The notes under the pieces were generated by a model that saw only the letters and a list, made by a program, of their open reading frames with translations, did no database searches and was not told the DNA's origin. A DNA stretch of 36,035 nucleotides from an uncultured Gammaproteobacteria bacterium (GTDB lineage: Bacteria > Patescibacteriota > Patescibacteriia > Magasanikbacterales > UBA922): NCBI GenBank assembly GCA_964412535.1, contig CAYPPF010000001.1, forward strand, positions 1 to 36,035, read 5' to 3'. Made by a program: the position numbers and the translations under genes. Each line of letters begins with the position of its first letter. The first letter of the stretch is position 1. This document shows positions 4,830 through 36,035 of the stretch, piece after piece.

Positions 4830-5288
4830 ATGATGTCGACTATATCTGTAACTGTGGATCCAGTTTCTGTGGAGATGGGTGATCTTCAACCGAGTGAGCT
4901 GAAGAAAGTACGTAGGGGCATTAAACTGGTGCGAGCCATAAAGAAAAGGTCTGGCAGTGCCGGATTCTATTCTTTCCTTGGATGGATGTTCGGCATAGCC
5001 ATTACGGTGATTCTCACGGCCGTGGAAAAAGAACGCGGTTTTATAGGATCTTCTTCCGGGATTTTCGGGGTCGGTTGCTTTTTCGTCACTGGCTTGACAG
5101 TGGCAATACGGTCCTGGTGGGCTGGAGTAGAGCAGACGAAGACCAGGAGCGACATAGTGGCGCTCCTTGGTTGCATGCGTGATTCAGCGCGGTGCAGCCA
5201 GTTTGTAGAGGAATTTGCTGAAAACGATGGCGACTTTGCCAAACAATTGGCAAGGCACTCACCAAAGCCGGTAGTCGTAACTGCCTAG
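4830..5288 (+). CDS. Hypothetical membrane protein (2 TM), GC-richer than flanks
   Basis: Strong SD AGGAGAGGAG; two hydrophobic helices; no recognised family. Confidence 0.75.
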   Translation: MMSTISVTVDPVSVEMGDLQPSELKKVRRGIKLVRAIKKRSGSAGFYSFLGWMFGIAITVILTAVEKERGFIGSSSGIFGVGCFFVTGLTVAIRSWWAGVEQTKTRSDIVALLGCMRDSARCSQFVEEFAENDGDFAKQLARHSPKPVVVTA

Positions 5289-5402
5289 CGATCTCTAGAT
5301 CGCTTCCAGACTTCGCTCTTTGTCTCGTACGAGGTACAAGCCAGGGGAAACACATTCCTTTTGGAGCGTTTTTTCCCTGCGCTCCGTTCAAAATTATATT
5401 AT

Positions 5403-7195: not shown

Positions 7196-8104
7196 ATGCT
7201 TTCATTACTACGAGTAATAAAATTTGCTTTTCAAGATATTTACCGTAATTTCAGCCTGTCTATCATGACTGTCCTTATTCTAGTACTAATGCTTTTGTCT
7301 ATTAACACTCTGGTGATAATAAACGTGTTGACTGGCGAGGCAGTAAGTTCTGTAAAGGATCAGATTGATGTGGGTATATATTTTAATCACGAAGCTAATA
7401 ATGAAGAAATTGAAGAGATACGATCATACATTAGTTCTTTCCCAGAAGTGGTGGAAATAACCTTTCTAGACAAAGATCAGGTTCTGTCCAGTTTTAGGGA
7501 ACAGTATGAAGACAATGAAGAGATTACGGCTGCATTAGAAGAACTAGGTGAAAATCCTTTAGGTCCTACCATGATAGTGAAAACCAGAGAGCCTAGGGAG
7601 TATGAAAAAGTAATTACTGCTTTAGATGTTCCAGAGTATGAGAATGTGATAGAGGCAAAAACTTTTGCTGACACAGAAAAGGCTATTGAGCGTATTCATA
7701 CTATTACTACTCAAGTAGAAAGATTTAGTTTGGTCTTAAGTTCATTATTTGCTGTAATAGCTTTTTTGATTATCTTCAACACCATACGGGTGGCTATATA
7801 TACCCACAGGATTGAAATTAATATTAAGAAGCTGGTTGGAGCTACTAATTGGTTTGTACGAGGACCATATATAATAGAATCATTGATTTTTAGTTTGTTT
7901 AGCATGTTGATTACCTTGGCTGTTGTATGGATTTCTCTTGATTTACTAAATCCATACATAACCATAGTGTTCCAAGAGCCAGGTTTGTTAACAAACTACT
8001 ACCTATCCAACCTTACTGTACTATTAGGTGGACAATTGGTAGGGGTGGTGTTGTTAACAGTATTATCAAGTTTGTTGGCAATGCGGAAGTACTTGCGTGT
8101 ATAA
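7196..8104 (+). CDS. ftsX: Cell division permease FtsX
   Basis: 4-TM layout, GENPL, FNTIRVAI...EINIKKLVGATNWFVRGPY. Confidence 0.92.
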   Translation: MLSLLRVIKFAFQDIYRNFSLSIMTVLILVLMLLSINTLVIINVLTGEAVSSVKDQIDVGIYFNHEANNEEIEEIRSYISSFPEVVEITFLDKDQVLSSFREQYEDNEEITAALEELGENPLGPTMIVKTREPREYEKVITALDVPEYENVIEAKTFADTEKAIERIHTITTQVERFSLVLSSLFAVIAFLIIFNTIRVAIYTHRIEINIKKLVGATNWFVRGPYIIESLIFSLFSMLITLAVVWISLDLLNPYITIVFQEPGLLTNYYLSNLTVLLGGQLVGVVLLTVLSSLLAMRKYLRV

Positions 8105-27194: not shown

Positions 27195-28292
27195 ATGGAT
27201 AATTTTCCCAAAATAGCTATTGTATACCTCTCATTTCATTGTGAGCCATATATTGATGATGTGGTTTCTTCTTTGAAAAAAATATCATACCCTAAAGACA
27301 AGGTTGAGTTTATCATCATAGACAACCCTCATCCAGAACATGGATCTTCAGTAAGGCATTTAGAAGAAAATGTAATGCCATTGTCTGGAACAGAAATACC
27401 ACATGTTACCCTATTGGCTCAAACAGAAAATCTTGGATTTGCAGGAGGGAACAACGAAGGTGTTAAATGGGCAATTGATAATGGGTACGATTATGTATAT
27501 TTTCATAATAATGATGGCTTTGTTGCTGCTAATTGTCTAGAACCCTTGGTAAAAGTAATGGAAAATGACAAAAAGATAGGGATAGCACAGTCACTAATGC
27601 TTCTTCATCCAGAAACTGACCTGATTAACAGTGCGGGCAATGCTTTTCAATATCTAGGCTTTGGCTTTTGTAATAATTACCGACACAAGTACCAAGGAAT
27701 TGATTTGCCTGAAGTAAAAGATATTGCATATGCTAGTGGAGCTGCTTTGTTAATGAGAGTTGATTTGTTAAAAGAATACGGGCTATGGGATGAAGATTTT
27801 TTCCTATACCACGAAGATTTAGAATACTCTTTTCGTTTAAGAGTGGCCGGATATAGTACAGTGTTGGTAAAGAATTCTATTTTCTATCATAAATACAGAT
27901 TTAGTAGAAGTATAACCAAATTTTATTGGATGGAACGCAATAGGTATGGACTAATGCTCATGTTTTTCCGTTGGCCCACCCTTTTACTACTTTTACCAAT
28001 GGCACTAGTATTAGAGGCTGGATTATGGCTCTTTGCCATTAAAGGAGGCTGGGCAAAAGAAAGAGTAAAGGTATATTCATATTGGCTAAAACCAAAAAGT
28101 TGGAAGCTGTGGTTGAAAAAAAGAAAGAATATTCAAAAGATTAAAAAGATTAAAGACAAAGACTTGCTAAAATTAGCAGTACCCGGAGTTCATTTCCAGG
28201 AAGAGTCAATGGAAAACCCTATTCTAAGGTATGTTGGCAATCCTGTTATGACAGTATATTATTGGATTATGAGAATAATTATTCAATGGTAA
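27195..28292 (+). CDS. Glycosyltransferase family 2
   Basis: IDN, GFAGGNN, HNND, FFLYHEDLEYSFR. Confidence 0.92.
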   Translation: MDNFPKIAIVYLSFHCEPYIDDVVSSLKKISYPKDKVEFIIIDNPHPEHGSSVRHLEENVMPLSGTEIPHVTLLAQTENLGFAGGNNEGVKWAIDNGYDYVYFHNNDGFVAANCLEPLVKVMENDKKIGIAQSLMLLHPETDLINSAGNAFQYLGFGFCNNYRHKYQGIDLPEVKDIAYASGAALLMRVDLLKEYGLWDEDFFLYHEDLEYSFRLRVAGYSTVLVKNSIFYHKYRFSRSITKFYWMERNRYGLMLMFFRWPTLLLLLPMALVLEAGLWLFAIKGGWAKERVKVYSYWLKPKSWKLWLKKRKNIQKIKKIKDKDLLKLAVPGVHFQEESMENPILRYVGNPVMTVYYWIMRIIIQW

Positions 28293-28293
28293 T

Positions 28294-29385
28294 ATGAAGA
28301 TACGGAAGGCAATCCTGACAGGTGGTGGAAGAGCAACGAGACTACATCCAATTACCACCACCACTAACAAGCATCTTTTGCCATTGGCAAATAAGCCAAT
28401 GATTTTTCATGCTATTGATAAGGCAGTGGAGGCAGGAGTGAGAGAGATATTTATCAATACCAACCCTGGAGAAACGGAATTACAAAAATATATAGGTGAT
28501 GGCGGATATTGGGGAGTATCAATTAAGTTTTTTGAACAAGAGGGTGGTCCTCAAGGAATTGCTCATGTAGTAAAGTGTGCTGAAGACTATATCGGTAATG
28601 ATCCTTTTATGTTTTTCTTGTCTGATAATATTGTATTAGGAAGCCTAAAGCCTACTTTTGAACATTTTGTTCAAGAAAAACTAGATTGCATGTTGGCTTT
28701 TGCCAAGGTTCCTGATGCAAGACCTTTTGGGGTACCAATATTTGATGATAGTGGAAAGTTGGTTGATGTTTGGGAAAAGCCTGACAATCCACCCAACAAC
28801 TTAGCTCAAACAGGAATATACTTGTATGGGCCTAAAGTTTTCTATAAAGCTTTTGATCAAATTGAAAAGAGTGCTAGAGGAGAGTATGAAATTTCAAGTA
28901 TCCATTCTCATTTTTTAAAGAATGGTTTCAAGGTGGGACACAAAGAGGTGACAGGCTGGTGGAAAGACACTGGAATGCCTGAAGATATGATTACAGCCAA
29001 TCAATTACTATTAGAGGAAATACCAGCTGAAGATTTTTCCAACTATGGAAAAATAAACTCTGGTACTGAGGTACAAGGAAAGGTGCAGATTGGGATAGGC
29101 AGTTTGTTAAAAAATAACGTAAAGATTATTGGCCCAGTAATAGTAGGGGAGAATTGTATTTTAGAAAACTGTACAATAGGTCCATATACAACTATTGGGT
29201 CAGGATCAGAAATCCGTAATGCTAAGATCAAAAATTCAATTGTTCTAGAAAACAGTCTTATACATGTAGATATGGAAATAGACAATAGTATTATTGGCAA
29301 GAGCGTAAAATTAGTTCATCGAGAGAAAAAAGAAGCTGAGGGTCATAGAATGATTATCGGAGACAAGACTGTCTTGGAAATATAA
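28294..29385 (+). CDS. rfbA: Glucose-1-phosphate thymidylyltransferase, long form with left-handed beta-helix
   Basis: GGGRATRLHPIT, KHLLPLANKP, EKP, SARGEYEI, WKDTG, hexapeptide C-terminal repeats. Confidence 0.88.
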   Translation: MKIRKAILTGGGRATRLHPITTTTNKHLLPLANKPMIFHAIDKAVEAGVREIFINTNPGETELQKYIGDGGYWGVSIKFFEQEGGPQGIAHVVKCAEDYIGNDPFMFFLSDNIVLGSLKPTFEHFVQEKLDCMLAFAKVPDARPFGVPIFDDSGKLVDVWEKPDNPPNNLAQTGIYLYGPKVFYKAFDQIEKSARGEYEISSIHSHFLKNGFKVGHKEVTGWWKDTGMPEDMITANQLLLEEIPAEDFSNYGKINSGTEVQGKVQIGIGSLLKNNVKIIGPVIVGENCILENCTIGPYTTIGSGSEIRNAKIKNSIVLENSLIHVDMEIDNSIIGKSVKLVHREKKEAEGHRMIIGDKTVLEI

Positions 29386-29398
29386 TTAAGTGGCAAAA

Positions 29399-29427
29399 AT
29401 AAAAACTCCCTAAAAGGGAATTTTTAT
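29399..29427. terminator. Probable bidirectional terminator
   Basis: ATAAAAACTCCC-TAAAA-GGGAATTTTTAT (one mismatch) between convergent genes. Confidence 0.55.
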
Positions 29428-29441
29428 AATTATTTCAGTTA

Positions 29442-30749
29442 TTAATATTCCAATTCAAACAGTCCTCGTTTTTGAGCCACTCTTCCAAGAAAGAAAATCT
29501 TTCTTTCTTTTGTATTCACTCCTATTTTTTCCATACTACCGTTGTTGAGCAGCTCGTGACTTATGTAGTAACCCGGATTAAATCCTGTCAATTTATTCTC
29601 TGAAGCCAAAAGAAGGACACCTTGGTTGTCTAACGGATTTACATGCTGTATTTTTTCTCCAGTTCTATTAAGGAGAGCAAGACTTCCATTATCATATATA
29701 GTCCAGAGTTCCCACCAAGACCAGGTGATCCACTCTTTTGTCTTTTTGTTGTACAAAAGATGTTGGGTAGGGAGAGTTTGGTGCTCTTCTTTTTCAAGGG
29801 TTAGTATTTGAATATTGTTAGGTATTTTTACAATTACCCTTTCTTTGTTTATATCCACTATCTTTTCAACTTCTTCTTTAAAAGATAGTTCCCTGTCATC
29901 ACTCACTAGTTCTCTTTTTTCTTTGTTATATATCCACACATTTTCTTCTCCATCAACAAACCATACATTAGAAAATGTTGTTTTAATGGTCTTTTGATTA
30001 AAGACATTCAATTCAACTATCTCGTTGTTTGTTTTTATGTATATAGACGGGCTAAAGCTATTTTTTGCCCATTGAAAAGATTCTATAGTACTTTGGAAAG
30101 AATATGTTTTAGATAGTTCTTGATTATCTGCATTTATTATCTGCATTGTTTCTTCTCCTCCCTGTCTTGTTTTTATCATCAGAAAGTTAGCATGTGGTGA
30201 CCAGGACACTTCTGGTTCTATACTGCTGTTTATTCTTAGTAAAGAATCCTTTTGTTTTTTCTCAGTATCAAATGGTGTTATTTCATACACTCCTTTTTCT
30301 AAAGAAGTAATAGCTAGAAAAGATCCATCATATGAAGCGTTCATATCAATCATGTTCTCAGCTATGTCAATTTGCACAGGTAGAGAGTCTTTGAACAATA
30401 CAATGTTTTTTATATATGTTGTCCTCCTGCTTTCTATGGTTACATCTTTTTTCCATTCTTTATATCCAGGAGCTAGAAACTTGATTTCATAGGTTCCAGG
30501 GGCTCTGTTTGGGAAGTATATTGGCAGATTCTTTGTTATCTTTACATCATTTAGGTATACATCAGCATGATCTGGTTCCACATCAACACTCAACACCCCT
30601 GTTTGCACTATCTTCTTGTTTCCCCAGTCATACCTATATCCAGCAGTATACATGATTACTATAGGGGAGATTACTAAAAAACTGGTAATCAAAAAACACA
30701 TTATACAAATGCGGATAGGTCTAGTAAGTCTACTTGGAGAGTGTGGCAT
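29442..30749 (-). CDS. PEGA-domain membrane-anchored protein with probable beta-propeller C-terminus
   Basis: TM, YTAGYRYD, TGVLSVDVEPDHADVYLND...PGTYEIKFLAPGYKEWKK, WSP-type blades. Confidence 0.8.
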   Translation of the reverse strand: MPHSPSRLTRPIRICIMCFLITSFLVISPIVIMYTAGYRYDWGNKKIVQTGVLSVDVEPDHADVYLNDVKITKNLPIYFPNRAPGTYEIKFLAPGYKEWKKDVTIESRRTTYIKNIVLFKDSLPVQIDIAENMIDMNASYDGSFLAITSLEKGVYEITPFDTEKKQKDSLLRINSSIEPEVSWSPHANFLMIKTRQGGEETMQIINADNQELSKTYSFQSTIESFQWAKNSFSPSIYIKTNNEIVELNVFNQKTIKTTFSNVWFVDGEENVWIYNKEKRELVSDDRELSFKEEVEKIVDINKERVIVKIPNNIQILTLEKEEHQTLPTQHLLYNKKTKEWITWSWWELWTIYDNGSLALLNRTGEKIQHVNPLDNQGVLLLASENKLTGFNPGYYISHELLNNGSMEKIGVNTKERKIFFLGRVAQKRGLFELEY

Positions 30750-30758
30750 AGTAAATAC

Positions 30759-30787
30759 TTGCTTTTTGTTATGTTTTAGTATACAAT
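30759..30787 (+). promoter_or_regulatory. Sigma70 promoter for murA
   Basis: TTGCTT-17-TACAAT. Confidence 0.65.
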
Positions 30788-30810
30788 ACTATCGTAATTT
30801 AGCAAAAAAT

Positions 30811-32112
30811 ATGGCTAATTTCGTTATTCACGGAGGTTTTAAACTCCATGGTAGTATTGATGTAAACACAGCTAAAAATTCAGCTGTGGCTTTGCTTTGT
30901 GCCTCTTTACTGGTAAAGGGAAAAGTAGTACTGAAAGATATCCCTAAAATCCAGGAAGTAGACCGCATTCTGGAGATTCTATCTAGTATTGGGGTAAAAG
31001 TCAAGTGGGAGACAGAACGTACTCTTGTTTTAGATAGTTCTACAAAGCTAAGAATGGATAATATTGACCGTAGAGCTTGTAAGCTGACCCGCTCTTCTTT
31101 GTTGCTTTTAGGGGCACTGGCTGGAAGAGTGAAAGAATATAAATTGTATAAGACAGGCGGATGTAAACTAGGAGAGAGAACAGTAAAGCCTCATCTGTTT
31201 GCTTTAGAAAGATTAGGGGTGAGTGTAAAATCAACACTCAAATATTACGAGATAAAAAACAAGCCTTTGAAGCCAGCAGAGATAGTAATGTATGAATCAG
31301 GAGATACTCCAACTGAAAATGCCATTATGGCAGCAGTACTAGCTCCAGGGAAGACTGTAATCAAATTTGCTTCTTCCAACTACATGGTACAAGACCTTTG
31401 CTACTTCCTACAAAAAGCTGGTGCTAAAATTGAAGGAATAGGCTCTACCACTTTAGAAATAGTTGGAGTGAAGAAACTAAAACCAGTAAATGAATACCAC
31501 ATAATGCCAGATCCAATTGAAGCAATGGCTTTTGTCTCACTAGGAATAACTACTAAGTCTGGGCTGACTATAAAAAACTGTCCAATTGAATTCTTGGAAC
31601 TGGAATTGGAAAAGTTGAGGATTGCTGGACAGAAGTATAGTCTGCATAACAAAAGAAAATCTAAGAACAAGAAATTTGACATAGTGGATATAAAGCTAGT
31701 TCCTTCTGATCTGAATGCTTTACCTGATAAAGTATATGGTCGCCCATTCCCAGGACTAAACGTAGACAACCTACCCTTTTTTGTCCCCATCCTTACTCAA
31801 GCTAAAGGAAGATCTTTAGTACATGATTGGGTGTATGAAAATAGGGCAGTATATTACTTAGAACTTCAAAAACTTGGAGCAAAAGTAACCCTACTAGATC
31901 CTCATAGAATGTTTGTGGAGGGAAAGACCAGGCTTCATCCAAATGAAATAATATGTCCTCCTGGAATCAGGCCAGCCATGGTGATCCTAATCGCAATGCT
32001 AGCAGCCAAAGGCAAATCAATTTTACGCAATATATATCCAGTAGAAAGAGGGCATGAAAACCTAGCTAAAAGACTAGAAAAGATTGGGGCTAGAATTGAA
32101 AGAACAGAATAA
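30811..32112 (+). CDS. murA: UDP-N-acetylglucosamine 1-carboxyvinyltransferase
   Basis: AKNSAVALL, GGCKLGERTV (catalytic Cys), MPDPIEA, PFPG, VYENR, ERGHE; start moved to ATG 30811. Confidence 0.93.
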   Translation: MANFVIHGGFKLHGSIDVNTAKNSAVALLCASLLVKGKVVLKDIPKIQEVDRILEILSSIGVKVKWETERTLVLDSSTKLRMDNIDRRACKLTRSSLLLLGALAGRVKEYKLYKTGGCKLGERTVKPHLFALERLGVSVKSTLKYYEIKNKPLKPAEIVMYESGDTPTENAIMAAVLAPGKTVIKFASSNYMVQDLCYFLQKAGAKIEGIGSTTLEIVGVKKLKPVNEYHIMPDPIEAMAFVSLGITTKSGLTIKNCPIEFLELELEKLRIAGQKYSLHNKRKSKNKKFDIVDIKLVPSDLNALPDKVYGRPFPGLNVDNLPFFVPILTQAKGRSLVHDWVYENRAVYYLELQKLGAKVTLLDPHRMFVEGKTRLHPNEIICPPGIRPAMVILIAMLAAKGKSILRNIYPVERGHENLAKRLEKIGARIERTE

Positions 32113-32113
32113 T

Positions 32114-32141
32114 TTGACAAATTAGCATAATCTGGTATAAT
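32114..32141 (+). promoter_or_regulatory. Consensus sigma70 promoter of the pro operon
   Basis: TTGACA-16-TATAAT with extended -10 TG. Confidence 0.85.
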
Positions 32142-32151
32142 ACTTACCAAT

Positions 32152-32205
32152 ATGATATCAAGTTTGATAAAACTTACTCCACCTAGCAAGAGCTGCCTGC
32201 TGTAG
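32152..32205 (+). CDS. Putative pro-operon leader peptide MISSLIKLTPPSKSCLL
   Basis: ATG 10 nt after the -10 box; tandem Pro codons CCA-CCT at 32179-32184; overlaps alternative hairpins. Confidence 0.7.
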   Translation: MISSLIKLTPPSKSCLL

Positions 32206-32232
32206 TTTCTTGCTTAAGATTAATTACACAAT

Positions 32233-32264
32233 AGGTAGCGTCAATAAAGACGCTACTTTTATTT
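32233..32264 (+). terminator. Attenuator terminator upstream of proA
   Basis: AGGTAGCGTC-AATAAA-GACGCTACTT then TTATTT; lies between the promoter and the proA start. Confidence 0.85.
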
Positions 32265-32271
32265 CACTCAT

Positions 32272-33510
32272 ATGAATACTCAAGAACAACTTATATCCGC
32301 CAAACAAGCTTCAGTACAATTGCGTACTGCGACTACTAAACAAAAAAATGATTTCCTCACTAAGCTGGCTAGTTTGCTAGTGGAAAACAAAGAAAGAATA
32401 GTGGAAGAAAATAAAAAAGATCTTTCAGAAGTACAAGGTATTACTAAAGCAATGGAAAAAAGATTAAAAATCTCTGCTGAAGCAATAGAAGACATTGCGC
32501 AAGGACTAAAAGAAGTAGCAGAGTTGGCTGATCCTGTAGGAACTATCACTAAAATGTGGAAACGCCCTAATGGAATGCAAGTAGGTAGAATGAGAGCCCC
32601 TATTGGCGTTATCTTCTTCATTTTCGAGTCCAGACCTAATGTAATTGTAGATGCAGCCGCTCTTTGCATAAAAAGCGGGAATGTTTTGATTGCTAGAGGA
32701 GGAAAAGAGGCTCTAAACTCAAATAATATTCTTTTGCAGTACATTAAACAAGCACTTGAATCTGTAGCACTACCTTCTGGAGCTGTGCAACAGTTAGAAG
32801 ATAGAAACTACGAAGCAGTGACGGAGGTGGTAAAGTCAGACAAGTATGTTGATCTAGTAGTTCCTAGAGGAAGAGAGAAATTAATTAGATCAATCAAAGA
32901 AGCAGCTCAAGTACCAGTGATTGCTCATGAAAGAGGGCTCTGTCATCTGTATATAGACAAGAGTGCTAACAAAGAAAAAGCAATCGAAATTGCTTTGAAT
33001 GCAAAAACATCAAACCCTTCTACTTGTAATACGATAGAAACTATTTTAGTGCACAGTGATATGGCTGAAGAAGTTGTTTCTAGTTTAGTAGACAAGTTAA
33101 TTGAAGCTGGAGTAGAAGTCCGAGGGTGTGAGAAGGTCTGTGCTTTGAATCAAAAAAGTAATCTAGCTAGTGAAGAAGATTGGGATACAGAATATTTAGA
33201 CATGATTGTCTCTATCAAAGTAGTAGATTCTTTTGAAAAAGGAATTGAACATATACAAAAGTATAGTTCTGGACTAACTGACACAATAGTGACAGAAGAC
33301 TATCAAAGATCTAGAAAGTTCTTGGAGATGATAAACAGTGCTGCGGTGCTAGTGAACGTTTCTAATCGCTTCACTGACGGCAACCAATTTGGTTTAGGGG
33401 CAGAATTAGGGATAAGTACGTCTTCTGTCCATATGAAAGGCCCTATGGGCTTAGAAGACCTTACAACCACAAAGTACATAGTACTAGGAGATGGTCAAAT
33501 AAGGGAATAA
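32272..33510 (+). CDS. proA: Gamma-glutamyl phosphate reductase
   Basis: PIGVIFFIFESRPNV, RGGKEA, VPRG, CNTIETIL, RFTDGNQFGLGAELGIST, GPMGLEDLT. Confidence 0.96.
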   Translation: MNTQEQLISAKQASVQLRTATTKQKNDFLTKLASLLVENKERIVEENKKDLSEVQGITKAMEKRLKISAEAIEDIAQGLKEVAELADPVGTITKMWKRPNGMQVGRMRAPIGVIFFIFESRPNVIVDAAALCIKSGNVLIARGGKEALNSNNILLQYIKQALESVALPSGAVQQLEDRNYEAVTEVVKSDKYVDLVVPRGREKLIRSIKEAAQVPVIAHERGLCHLYIDKSANKEKAIEIALNAKTSNPSTCNTIETILVHSDMAEEVVSSLVDKLIEAGVEVRGCEKVCALNQKSNLASEEDWDTEYLDMIVSIKVVDSFEKGIEHIQKYSSGLTDTIVTEDYQRSRKFLEMINSAAVLVNVSNRFTDGNQFGLGAELGISTSSVHMKGPMGLEDLTTTKYIVLGDGQIRE

Positions 33511-33512
33511 AT

Positions 33513-34574
33513 ATGAAGAATAACCTTGCCATCATCAAAATAGGGACAAGTGTTCTCATAGATGAGAATGGACAATTGCGTGAATCTGTAATTAGAAGCA
33601 TATTTTCAGCTGTAAGTGAGAAGATCAAAAAGGGTGAGAAGATTGCCTTAGTTAGTTCAGGAGCTGTTGCCATGGGAAGAGCAGTAAGTGGAGATAAAGA
33701 AATGAATAAAAGATTGGCCGCCTCTATTGGACAAGTACACCTAATGTCATACTTTCTTGGTGTGGCCAGAGAAATGGGTCTAGAAACAGCCCAATTACTA
33801 ATATCCAGAGCTCATCTGATTCAAAGACAGCAGTTTCTTCAACTACAACAGACTATTGAACAAGCTTTACCAGCTGGAGTGATTCCAATTATTAATGAAA
33901 ATGACGCTCTTGTTATTGATTGGGGCTTTAGTGACAACGACAGCCTAGCTGTCTCTCTTGCTATTGCTTCTAATGCTTCCAGGTTAATAGTACTAAGCCA
34001 TGTGCCTGGACTATATACTGGAGATCCTTCTAAAGACCAAAACGTTGAGTTAATCAAGGAAGTGAAGGATGTAAATGCTGAATTAATGAAGTATTGTGGG
34101 AAAGAAGCTTCAGAACAAGGAAGAGGAGGCATGCTTTCCAAACTAAAAGCAGCCAGGCTATGTACAGCAGTTGGTATTCCTCTACAAATCGTAGACGGAC
34201 TAAACACAGAAAATATTGGTAAAGCATTGGACAATGAATCTGTAGGAACTGTGTTCCTACCCCGCCAATTAACAGAATCTATGAAGAATAGGGATAGGTG
34301 GCTCTTGGCAGCTAAAAGTTCTCCTGCTAGTATAGAGGTGGATGATGGGGCAGTTAGTGCACTAAAGAATGGTAAAAGTTTGTTAGCTGTTGGGATAAAA
34401 AAGATATATGGAAGTTTTGCAGAAAAAGAAATAGTAGAGATTGTGAATGACAAAAAAGAGGGGATTGCTTTTGGACTAACTGACGTTAGTTCCAAGATGT
34501 TGGAACAAAAGGAATTTTCAATGCAAAAAGGCATTCAAGTAATGCATGCTGACAACATAATGGTATTTGCTTAA
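33513..34574 (+). CDS. proB: Glutamate 5-kinase with PUA domain
   Basis: IKIGTSVL, VSSGAVAMG, PIINEND, FSDNDSL, GGMLSKLKAA, PUA domain VDDGA...KSLLAVGI. Confidence 0.96.
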   Translation: MKNNLAIIKIGTSVLIDENGQLRESVIRSIFSAVSEKIKKGEKIALVSSGAVAMGRAVSGDKEMNKRLAASIGQVHLMSYFLGVAREMGLETAQLLISRAHLIQRQQFLQLQQTIEQALPAGVIPIINENDALVIDWGFSDNDSLAVSLAIASNASRLIVLSHVPGLYTGDPSKDQNVELIKEVKDVNAELMKYCGKEASEQGRGGMLSKLKAARLCTAVGIPLQIVDGLNTENIGKALDNESVGTVFLPRQLTESMKNRDRWLLAAKSSPASIEVDDGAVSALKNGKSLLAVGIKKIYGSFAEKEIVEIVNDKKEGIAFGLTDVSSKMLEQKEFSMQKGIQVMHADNIMVFA

Positions 34575-34584
34575 TCAATTTAGT

Positions 34585-35373
34585 ATGAAAAAAATTAGTA
34601 TCATAGGCAGTGGAGTGATGGGAACTATATTTCTCAAGGCTGCTTTAGAGACAAATCAGGGTAGTGAAATTATAATCACTGACCGATCTGAAGAAAAACT
34701 TGAAGAGATACATAAAGAACATCCTCAAGTTATTACGAGTACAGATAATGTTCAGGCAATAAAAGACGCTGACTTGATTATTTTGGCTGTAAAACCACAA
34801 TCTTTTTCTGAGTTAGGCAAAGAAATTCAAGGAAATATTAACAAAGATGCTTTAGTTGTTTCAGTGATGGCTGGTATAGGACTCGAAGAGATACAAAACA
34901 CCTTAGGAACAAATGATATTGTTCGCACTATGCCTAATCTAGGGGCTAGAGTGGGTAAGTCAATGACAGTTTGGACATGTACTGATGGAGTTGATAGGGA
35001 AATAGTTACCAAACTATTAAAAAGTATTGGCCAAGAACTATTTGTAGAAAACGAGGAGATGATAGACAAAGCCACTGCAGTGAGTGGAAGCGGTCCTGGT
35101 TTTTTCTACCACATCATGGAAGAGTGGACTAAGGCTACTATTGATTTAGGTTTTTCCGAGGCAGAAGCTCAACAGCTTCTTCTAGCAACAATAGATGGAG
35201 CTAACGAACTCTGGCAAAAGGAAAAAGATGCTTCTGACTTGAAAAGCCAGGTAGCATCTAAAGGGGGAACCACAGAGGCTGGACTAAATATTTTGAAAGA
35301 ATCTAATATTGATCAGATCTTGCAAAAGACTTTGCAAGCCGCACTATCCAGAGCCAAAGAACTGTCAAAATAG
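34585..35373 (+). CDS. proC: Pyrroline-5-carboxylate reductase
   Basis: IGSGVMG, LAVKPQ, RTMPN, TAVSGSGPG, VASKGGTTEAG; start moved to ATG 34585. Confidence 0.95.
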   Translation: MKKISIIGSGVMGTIFLKAALETNQGSEIIITDRSEEKLEEIHKEHPQVITSTDNVQAIKDADLIILAVKPQSFSELGKEIQGNINKDALVVSVMAGIGLEEIQNTLGTNDIVRTMPNLGARVGKSMTVWTCTDGVDREIVTKLLKSIGQELFVENEEMIDKATAVSGSGPGFFYHIMEEWTKATIDLGFSEAEAQQLLLATIDGANELWQKEKDASDLKSQVASKGGTTEAGLNILKESNIDQILQKTLQAALSRAKELSK

Positions 35374-35374
35374 T

Positions 35375-36035
35375 ATGGAAAAAATACTAGTTGCAATGTC
35401 AGGAGGAGTGGACTCTTCAGTAGCCGCTGCCTTGTTACTGGAAAAAGGGTATGATGTTACCGGAGCTTTTATGATCAACTATGAAGAAGATTCTTCCGAC
35501 TGTTGGCTTTCTGACTACAGAGATGCAACACGAGTGGCTGCCAAACTAGGAATACAGTTACTCAAGCTCAACTTTACCAAAGAGTATGAAAGAGATGTAC
35601 TAGACTACATGTACAAGGAATATGAAAAGGGGATTACTCCCAATCCAGATGTACTATGCAACAAATATATTAAATTTGGAGCCTGGATGGAAAAAGCAAG
35701 AGAACTAGGATTCAGTAAACTAGCTACCGGACACTATGCTTCTACAAAAGATGGAAAGCTAATCATGGCTAAGGATGAAAACAAGGATCAAACATACTTC
35801 CTACATCAGTTAAACAAAGAGCAGCTTAGTCAAGCAATTTTTCCTTTAGGAGAGTTTACTAAAAAAGAAGTAAGGGAGTTAGCCAAGAAGTATGACCTTC
35901 CTACCGCAGAAAAGGAAGAAAGTATGGGTATCTGTTTTGTAGGAGAGGTAAATATGAAAGACTTCCTGCAAAAGAAAATAAAGTTAAAAAAAGGAAAGAT
36001 CGTAATGTCCAATGGAGAAGAAGTGGGAGAACACG
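35375..36035 (+). CDS. mnmA: tRNA 2-thiouridine(34) synthase MnmA, 5' part (runs off window; absent from ORF track)
   Basis: MEKILVAMSGGVDSSVAA, TPNPDVLCNKYIKFG, ATGHYA, KDQTYFL, ESMGICFVG. Confidence 0.96.
   Translation, partial: MEKILVAMSGGVDSSVAAALLLEKGYDVTGAFMINYEEDSSDCWLSDYRDATRVAAKLGIQLLKLNFTKEYERDVLDYMYKEYEKGITPNPDVLCNKYIKFGAWMEKARELGFSKLATGHYASTKDGKLIMAKDENKDQTYFLHQLNKEQLSQAIFPLGEFTKKEVRELAKKYDLPTAEKEESMGICFVGEVNMKDFLQKKIKLKKGKIVMSNGEEVGEH

Follow-up and report, generated by a model that had tools for sequence, protein, structure and literature searches.

A probable leader-peptide attenuator with tandem proline codons upstream of proA-proB-proC in a small Patescibacteriota genome

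The window analysed here, a stretch of 36,035 nucleotides (nt) at positions 1 to 36,035 of contig CAYPPF010000001.1 of assembly GCA_964412535.1 (GTDB lineage Patescibacteriota, Magasanikbacterales, UBA922), carries the proline biosynthesis genes proA-proB-proC behind a short leader that contains two adjacent proline codons. We conclude that this leader is most likely a ribosome-mediated (leader-peptide) transcription attenuator of the three genes that senses the supply of prolyl-tRNA. The conclusion draws on the sequence elements of the leader, on its alternative RNA pairings and their geometry in silico, on the recurrence of the unit in eight genomes and on its link to pro genes. From these we infer that the leader open reading frame (ORF) is translated, either from a leaderless mRNA or independently of a Shine-Dalgarno sequence, that ribosome and polymerase are coupled, and that read-through responds to proline. 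The 0.95-Mb genome carrying the window is referred to as G000; other G numbers denote the genomes compared with it and L numbers denote loci.

Architecture of the leader

The leader and the genes it precedes comprise the following features, all on the forward strand.

32114 to 32119 (+), −35 hexamer TTGACA, from the promoter scan and the sequence
32133 to 32141 (+), extended −10 element TGgTATAAT, with a 16-nt spacer from the −35 hexamer and 10 nt to the ATG
32152 to 32205 (+), leader ORF MISSLIKLTPPSKSCLL, 17 codons followed by TAG (stop codon 32203 to 32205), read from the sequence
32179 to 32184 (+), tandem proline codons CCA CCT, codons 10 and 11 and the only proline codons of the ORF, the proposed sensing site
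32185 to 32196 with 32202 to 32214 (+), protector hairpin (1:2 helix), present in the minimum free energy (MFE) fold, −12.5 kcal/mol alone
32192 to 32199 with 32232 to 32239 (+), outer helix of the antiterminator, extendable to 32190/32242, in the MFE fold of a transcript cut before the 3′ arm of the terminator
32201 to 32211 with 32216 to 32228 (+), inner hairpin of the antiterminator, enclosed by the outer helix; whole antiterminator −17.9 kcal/mol
32233 to 32267 (+), intrinsic terminator, stem 32233 to 32242/32249 to 32258 of 10 pairs (5 G-C), loop AATAAA and T-rich tail TTTTATTT, −14.4 kcal/mol
32272 to 33510 (+), proA (glutamate-5-semialdehyde dehydrogenase), the first gene proposed to be regulated; NCBIfam NF001221, E 8e-161
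33513 to 34574 (+), proB (glutamate 5-kinase); TIGR01027, E 5.9e-81
34567 to 35373 (+), proC (pyrroline-5-carboxylate reductase), overlapping the end of proB; TIGR00112, E 2.1e-65

An earlier note on this DNA, made from the sequence alone, had described the promoter, the 17-codon ORF, the tandem CCA-CCT and three competing helices, and all of them were found again where it had placed them. Within the 8 kb that were scanned for promoters (28000 to 36035), that of the leader is the sole 12/12 match, and the runner-up reaches 10/12.

The leader ORF has no Shine-Dalgarno sequence, as is usual for the genes of G000, in which Shine-Dalgarno-like words show no enrichment ahead of genes (15% of upstream windows, 96 of 652, versus 23% of intragenic windows, 190 of 840). 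The 20 nt upstream of gene starts are A/T-rich in this genome, and position −1 is a T at 79% of its ATG starts, as it is at the leader ATG. Because Shine-Dalgarno words are not enriched and a T so commonly stands at −1, the start context of the leader ORF is typical for the organism. With its promoter-proximal ATG and the T at −1, the start is judged usable, and the leader mRNA is probably leaderless or nearly so. The 3′ tail of the 16S rRNA was not found in G000 with the single pattern tried. A single tRNA-Pro (UGG) was found by ARAGORN in the assembly, and under the usual wobble rules this one tRNA would read all CCN codons.

Recoding of TAG as a sense codon, which would lengthen the leader ORF, was considered and rejected, as 244 of 810 naive ORFs terminate in TAG and the tRNA with a CTA anticodon is mismatched in its anticodon stem. 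The latter, called as a ‘tRNA-Pyl’ by ARAGORN on contig C5 of G000 (7858 to 7930, minus strand), has two mismatches in the anticodon stem and is probably a decayed or false tRNA and not evidence of a changed code.

Competing helices in the leader RNA

The 3′ strand of the outer antiterminator helix is also the 5′ arm of the terminator, and in the folds the antiterminator and the terminator are therefore mutually exclusive. The leader (32148 to 32271) folds better than 200 of 200 shuffles (z = −4.05) into an MFE structure that holds both the protector and the terminator, and the tandem proline codons are unpaired in every predicted fold. Read on the minus strand, the terminator hairpin has no T-run.

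As equilibrium folding of the complete leader does not discriminate between positions of the ribosome, ribosome states were compared on transcripts cut just before the 3′ arm of the terminator, which represent the state at the moment of decision. The footprint of the ribosome was assumed to reach 10 to 12 nt beyond the A site. When the A site holds the first proline codon (Pro1) and the ribosome edge lies at +10 to +12 nt, the terminator arm of G000 has 7 to 9 of its 10 bases paired upstream; a ribosome placed on the stop codon leaves no stable structure (−1.1 kcal/mol). When the intervening sequence was replaced by dinucleotide shuffles, just 3 of 300 gave an equally stable antiterminator.

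An Rfam search of 32000 to 32400, with the models Trp_leader, His_leader, Leu_leader and Thr_leader and others among those considered, matched no leader family, riboswitch or T-box; the best matches were SIB_RNA (E 1.7) and STnc420 (E 8), on the minus strand. Nor was a T-box (RF00230, with its specifier region and GGUGGUACCGCG box) matched in the window. A known riboswitch, T-box or Rfam leader family was thus rejected as the identity of the leader.

Recurrence upstream of pro operons

The proA gene is patchy in this lineage: 10 of the 61 nearest genomes have it, as do 26 of the 107 in the family and, at an E cut-off of 1e-40, 38 of the 401 sampled from the class. At an E cut-off of 1e-90, the proA clade of the window was found in 12 of the 240 order-level genomes. 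The region upstream of the first pro-operon gene was read in all 26 proA-bearing family genomes, including those with a proB-proC-proA layout. A leader unit, consisting of a TTGAC(A/T) promoter, a near ATG, a 14–23-codon ORF with two or three adjacent prolines (PP or PPP), an antiterminator and a GC hairpin with a T-run, lies directly upstream of the pro operon in 8 of the 26, which belong to six genera and include two proA clades and two gene orders. The earlier note had set the presence of a conserved short ORF with proline codons upstream of proA in relatives as a test of its reading, and these eight genomes bear it out. In one further genome (G027) the region is not assessable, as the contig begins there. 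The leader peptides of the seven genomes other than G000 are as follows.

G090, MKNNYSQIVPPPIFA, proA 66% identical
G107, MKKINTIFPPCSAA, proA 62% identical
G106, MNNINTIFPPCSAA, proA 61% identical
G022, MKFFKNKIVPPPMRYLV, proA 47% identical
G111, MNRRAYTTFVPPTYTSPPGV, proA 34% identical
G109, MNRYIQTTVVPPTYTPPSGV, proA 33% identical
G091, MKISVYKQRSRVIPPYNRVRGMI, upstream of proB

The −35 box TTGAC(A/T) is present in all eight leaders, the ATG follows 29–36 nt downstream of it, i.e. 6–13 nt after the −10 box, a T occupies position −1 of the ATG in seven of them, and PP or PPP falls at codons 9–14 in every case. The peptides are otherwise alike only in a hydrophobic or Thr residue that precedes the tandem prolines. 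Furthermore, the third bases of the proline codons differ (CCA CCT; CCA CCA CCA; CCT CCA; CCT CCG CCA; CCG CCA), and this variation within CCN codons points to selection on codon identity.

The gene order after the unit is proA-proB-proC in seven genomes and proB-proC-proA in G091, and murA, which lies upstream of the leader in the window, is the direct upstream neighbour in G000 alone. The unit tracks the pro genes and not the neighbouring gene. The hairpin is followed by the ATG of the first gene after 13–28 nt in six of the eight genomes (13 nt in G000, counted from the end of the terminator stem to 32272, and 14–28 nt in five others), which leaves no room for another promoter. G107 and G106 (L093, L094) carry about 150 nt with GC-rich inverted repeats (e.g. 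CCCGACAAGGTCGGGG) between the terminator and proA. This insert resembles a small repeat element, in which a separate promoter could lie.

Two loci of genus g32 (L114 and L120, in G031 and G127, respectively) display a promoter-like site, a short GC hairpin (GGTAGCT..AGCTAC) and a T-run that ends at the ATG of proB. No PP-containing ORF was found upstream of proB at either locus, and L120 has just a 2-codon ORF.

Shared geometry of the eight leaders

The leaders are alignable only among G000, G106 and G107, and per-genome folds and shuffles served instead of covariation. The leaders of G000, G106, G107, G090 and G022 were folded at full length, and those of G111, G109 and G091 as cut transcripts only. 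A terminator-equivalent hairpin is present in all eight. In every one of them the ORF contains the pairing partner of the terminator's 5′ arm, a strand that starts 10–22 nt past the first base of the proline codons and ends 1–8 nt before the stop codon. With the ribosome modelled at Pro1, between 4/8 and 7/7 arm bases are paired upstream in structures of −12.0 to −18.5 kcal/mol, and with the ribosome modelled at the stop codon the residual structure amounts to 0 to −3 kcal/mol. The antiterminator helix is held with differing sequences across genera (GCUGCCUG/UAGGUAGC, GUGCUGCC/GGCGGCAU, UUGCCU/AGGCAG and UCGGGUGU/ACACCCGA). Both the observed energy and the observed pairing were reached by 3, 19, 6, 6, 0, 1, 2 and 0 of the 300 shuffles made per genome. 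Judged by these models, the protector helix is an optional part of the device, the conserved core of which would be the proline codons, the antiterminator strand, the stop codon and the terminator.

Controls outside the family

For the controls we used a detector that calls an ATG-initiated ORF of 8–30 codons with PP, followed within 70 nt by a perfect stem of at least 6 base pairs and a T-run; it recovers seven of the eight known positives. The controls from other phyla were the best 80 proA loci of a genome collection (235 kb of upstream sequence) and the best 80 loci of a metagenome collection (78 kb). The proA scans of these collections gave matches of at most 51% identity, mostly from other phyla, and no extra leaders. 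Within 200 nt of proA the detector found nothing at the 80 genome loci and nothing at the 80 metagenome loci. Farther out it gave two matches in the genome loci and seven at six metagenome loci, all of them 371–696 nt from proA; those at 371–451 nt represent a single ORF that recurs, and the 40 nt before it show no promoter-like sequence.

Searches at the level of the order (240 genomes) and of the class (401 genomes) revealed no further PP leaders. Likewise, the detector found no unit in 36 class loci that belong to other families. These are 36 of 37 such loci, that of G326 having been dropped because its match lies at the contig start; L128, L129, L135, L137 and L139 are cut by contig ends, so that the region upstream of the operon is covered in only part of the loci. 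A scan of the class loci with a relaxed detector added only chance ORFs inside a T-box region.

A T-box was found upstream of proB in 2 of these 36 loci, in G398 (L159, 1402 to 1636, plus strand, 69.8 bits, E 5e-14) and in G287 (L160, 778 to 985, minus strand, 77.9 bits, E 4e-16). Both matches are full-length and score below the Rfam gathering score of 93. From their sequence, G398 and G287 seem to run proline synthesis by a T-box and not by a leader peptide; control of proline synthesis based on tRNA-Pro thus occurs in the class by another route.

At a locus of a further family (L149, G392), about 150 nt upstream of proB, we noticed by eye the promoter TTGACA-17-TATGAT and a GTG-initiated ORF, VKTLSSNSIPFPTTSC, in which two proline codons are split by a Phe codon and which is followed by the hairpin GACCGCC-agca-GGCGGT and a T-run. 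The PP detector does not count this ORF, which may be a variant proline leader.

A model of attenuation and its alternatives

We propose that transcription would start a few bases before the leader ATG and that a ribosome would translate the ORF while the polymerase transcribes the remainder of the leader. When Pro-tRNA(Pro) is scarce, the ribosome would wait with Pro1 or the second proline codon (Pro2; 32179 to 32184) in its A site and its front edge at about 32189–32194, covering the 5′ arm of the protector and leaving 32192–32199 exposed. This strand would then pair with 32232–32239 around the inner hairpin, the terminator would be blocked, and the polymerase would read through into proA. 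When proline is plentiful, the ribosome would reach the TAG at 32203–32205 and thereby cover the antiterminator strand, and after its release the protector would form. In either of these two states the terminator (32233 to 32258) and its U-tract would be free to form, and transcription would stop 13 nt before proA. The device would most likely turn on the proline genes only when charged tRNA-Pro is short.

Several observations weigh against this model. A look-up of RNA runs listed none that contains the stretch. The G000 leader has only two sensing codons. Its full-length equilibrium fold keeps the terminator in every modelled ribosome state, so that antitermination must be kinetic, as in classical attenuators, and the modelled switch depends on kinetics during transcription that are assumed. 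When Pro2 occupies the A site and the ribosome edge is set at +12, the terminator arm keeps only 4 of its 10 bases paired in G000 and 2 of 10 in G106 and G107; the model is thus sensitive to the footprint and favours a stall at the first proline codon. The count of pairing bases alone is unremarkable compared to shuffles in five of the eight genomes. The full-length folds of G000, G106 and G107 contain the protector helix, and those of G090 and G022 lack it. The leaders of G109 and G111 have a further PP pair that overlaps the antiterminator strand; a ribosome stalled on it would mask this strand and favour termination. This further pair may result simply from the GC-rich sequence of the stem. 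Finally, 17 of the 26 proA-bearing family genomes are without the leader unit, including G010 (proA 59% identical), in which a tRNA and a promoter lie directly upstream of proA, and the eight genomes that have it are related and do not constitute eight independent observations.

The proposal of the earlier note that stalling on the proline codons leads to antitermination is supported by the comparison across eight genomes and by the constrained folds. Of its three helices, the antiterminator and the terminator have equivalents in all eight leaders, and the protector is not a conserved part. The switch expected upon blocking the bases under the ribosome takes place in the cut transcript and not in the full-length fold.

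The same device could respond to another signal, namely to slow formation of the Pro-Pro bond, and would then report EF-P activity or translation capacity and not the supply of proline. Consecutive proline codons need EF-P, a need that the mgtP leader of Salmonella is reported to exploit (PMC5021804), and the leaders of G090 and G022 contain PPP while those of G109 and G111 contain two PP pairs. An efp gene is, however, present in G000 and scores above the family cut-off, so that stalling at PP should be relieved. Moreover, the genes behind the unit are always those of proline biosynthesis, and other leaders of the same genome, described below, carry runs of Arg or Asn codons, which are not EF-P motifs, before argG and tRNA-Asn, as fits sensing of the cognate tRNA. 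A signal from EF-P is therefore unlikely.

We regard as very unlikely the explanation that the hairpin is an ordinary terminator, either of murA or of a small independent transcript, that the ORF and its proline codons are there by chance and that proABC is expressed by constitutive leakage. Among the 1029 intergenic ATG-initiated short ORFs of G000, PP occurs in 45 and a terminator-like hairpin lies close to 107, and the terminator of the leader is always part of the full-length MFE structure. In the scan of these ORFs, read by eye, PP and a consensus promoter are combined only in the proA leader. The promoter, however, lies upstream of the terminator, and none fits into the 13 nt before proA; together with the presence of murA next to the unit in G000 alone, this excludes the arrangement that the earlier note had named as its refutation, in which the hairpin serves only to terminate murA and proA has its own promoter farther on. 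Furthermore, the PP unit recurs in eight genomes beside pro genes with differing neighbours and is absent from the 160 proA loci of other phyla, and its antiterminator is better than those of shuffles.

An RNA-only switch, i.e. a riboswitch or a protein-binding leader in which the helices respond to a ligand and the ORF stays untranslated, is highly improbable: alternative helices do exist and other families of the class use a T-box for proB, but (i) no Rfam family matches (best E 1.7), (ii) the genera share no conserved sequence or core resembling a ligand pocket, only the reading frame, an ATG 6–13 nt after the −10 box and tandem prolines, and (iii) the leader, at about 110 nt, is too short for a T-box.

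Leaders with arginine and asparagine codons

Two units of similar layout were observed in G000 with runs of other codons. On contig C2 (minus strand, about 23760 to 23587; L125/L275), the promoter TTGACA-17-TACAGT-9-ATG opens the ORF MKMMINNSRRRRMKLQKLR with four consecutive Arg codons (CGC CGT CGT AGA), and a 12-base-pair terminator with a T-run lies just before argG (argininosuccinate synthase, E 8e-154). Leaders with RRR or RRRR and a terminator before argG are also present in G082 and G104, and G010 has a weaker RR case; in nine other genomes argG lies directly behind another gene.

On contig C29 (about 5085 to 5304; L164, 2086 to 2305), the promoter TTGACA-17-TGgTATTAT-8-ATG is followed by the ORF MKHSLVNNNNNMSS with five consecutive Asn codons. 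A CGGCGG directly after its stop codon pairs with the 5′ arm of a terminator, which together with its T-run stands 13 nt before tRNA-Asn(GTT), the only tRNA-Asn found in G000. A second terminator follows downstream, which makes the tRNA the sole cargo of this leader. An ORF with 4–8 Asn codons and a terminator is found at 28 of 30 tRNA-Asn loci of the family and at 15 of 28 sampled tRNA-Asn genes of the class, one of the 15 from the same family and the rest from other families. An Rfam search of the poly-Asn locus matched the tRNA alone.

Two further units with a promoter, a nearly leaderless short ORF and a terminator, MIRYSNNFYFYQTS and MLILDMNLNNQNLTHHKISFE (contig C10, minus strand, about 28594, and contig C8, minus strand, about 5444, both in G000), sit upstream of uncharacterised ORFs.

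Judging by these loci, the lineage appears to use leaderless leader-peptide attenuators routinely. We lean, with some reservation, towards the view that the proline leader is one of a lineage-wide set (Pro for proABC, Arg for argG and Asn for tRNA-Asn) that uses translation as a direct read-out of tRNA supply. The related Arg and Asn units suggest that such regulation is a general strategy of the lineage. The leader before tRNA-Asn surprises more than the proline leader and may be more novel; if the reading is true, it would constitute a ribosome-sensed feedback loop on a tRNA gene. We know of no leader-peptide loop on a tRNA-Asn gene, and full-text searches, which included few subscription journals, found no precedent for a leader before tRNA-Asn.

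Relation to known systems

Known cases of leader-peptide attenuation concern Trp, His, Phe, Leu, Thr, Ile/Val and Cys, and the known control of proline synthesis is by T-boxes or by feedback inhibition. In Bacillus, proBA and proI are under T-box control. The proline T-boxes share the logic proposed here: in them, too, a choice between terminator and antiterminator makes proline synthesis depend on how far tRNA-Pro is charged; a T-box, however, binds uncharged tRNA without translation, and the leader in the window is half the length of a T-box.

The proline leader would be, by analogy, a case of classical leader-peptide attenuation, closest in logic to trpL of the E. coli trp operon. In trpL, too, the short ORF (14 to about 17 codons) carries a tandem pair of cognate codons, and the RNA forms 1:2 (protector), 2:3 (antiterminator) and 3:4 (terminator plus U-tract) helices, of which strand 2 is freed by a stalled ribosome and masked by a ribosome at the stop codon. 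In contrast to trpL, the leader described here has proline codons and precedes genes of proline synthesis, bears no sequence relationship to trpL and belongs to a host of 0.95 Mb; its ORF starts 6–13 nt after the −10 box without a Shine-Dalgarno sequence, and the protector is dispensable in some relatives.

With regard to the codon sensed, the closest systems are mgtP and mgtL of Salmonella, short leader ORFs whose proline codons decide read-through. Consecutive proline codons of mgtP, in the leader of mgtCBR, are reported to choose between stem-loops and read-through and to be sensitive to both Pro-tRNA and EF-P (PMC5021804), and mgtL, in the leader of mgtA, is an ORF with proline codons (PMC3641672). 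They differ from the proline leader in preceding genes of Mg2+ transport and virulence and in sitting within long, multi-input enterobacterial leaders, whereas the proline leader is a unit of about 110 nt with its terminator directly before proA. The leaderless layout has its closest counterpart in mycobacterial short ORFs with consecutive Cys codons, which a preprint presents as amino-acid-responsive attenuators of the downstream operon (bioRxiv 10.1101/834739); these differ in the amino acid and in belonging to Actinobacteria. The discovery route, comparative analysis, is shared most closely with the cysS uORFC-8-2 motif of Rhodobacterales. This motif is a conserved upstream ORF with just two tandem cognate codons, a terminator stem and a U-run, and is read as ribosome-mediated attenuation (PMC8632094); it differs in its Cys codons, in preceding a tRNA synthetase gene, in its alphaproteobacterial host and in an ordinary 5′ untranslated region.

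Full-text searches, which included few subscription journals, found no leader peptide for proline biosynthesis, in agreement with the lack of a known example stated in the earlier note; comparative attenuation surveys (e.g. by the Lyubetsky group, Mol Biol) could hold a prior prediction. These searches also found no study of attenuation in the candidate phyla radiation, a group named in the earlier note and one that the genome size of 0.95 Mb fits. If the proposed reading is true, the window contains a leader peptide of proline biosynthesis for which an earlier report was not found, and a very small genome with little sign of Shine-Dalgarno use controls genes through the coupling of transcription and translation. 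The unit could serve as a compact sensor of prolyl-tRNA and, since it measures only about 150 nt including the promoter, lends itself to direct tests in a heterologous host or a cell-free system.

The upstream gene murA

The gene preceding the leader in the window is the following.

30616 to 32112 (+), murA (UDP-N-acetylglucosamine 1-carboxyvinyltransferase); ORF list and NCBIfam NF006873, E 1.4e-105, residues 66–497

Its stop codon occupies 32110–32112, and the −35 hexamer of the leader promoter begins two bases on; murA transcripts would also extend into the proline leader. The longest murA ORF opens with a TTG at 30616 and overlaps an ORF on the minus strand (29442 to 30749). As the family alignment begins only at residue 66, the true start of murA is probably later than 30616, near 30810.

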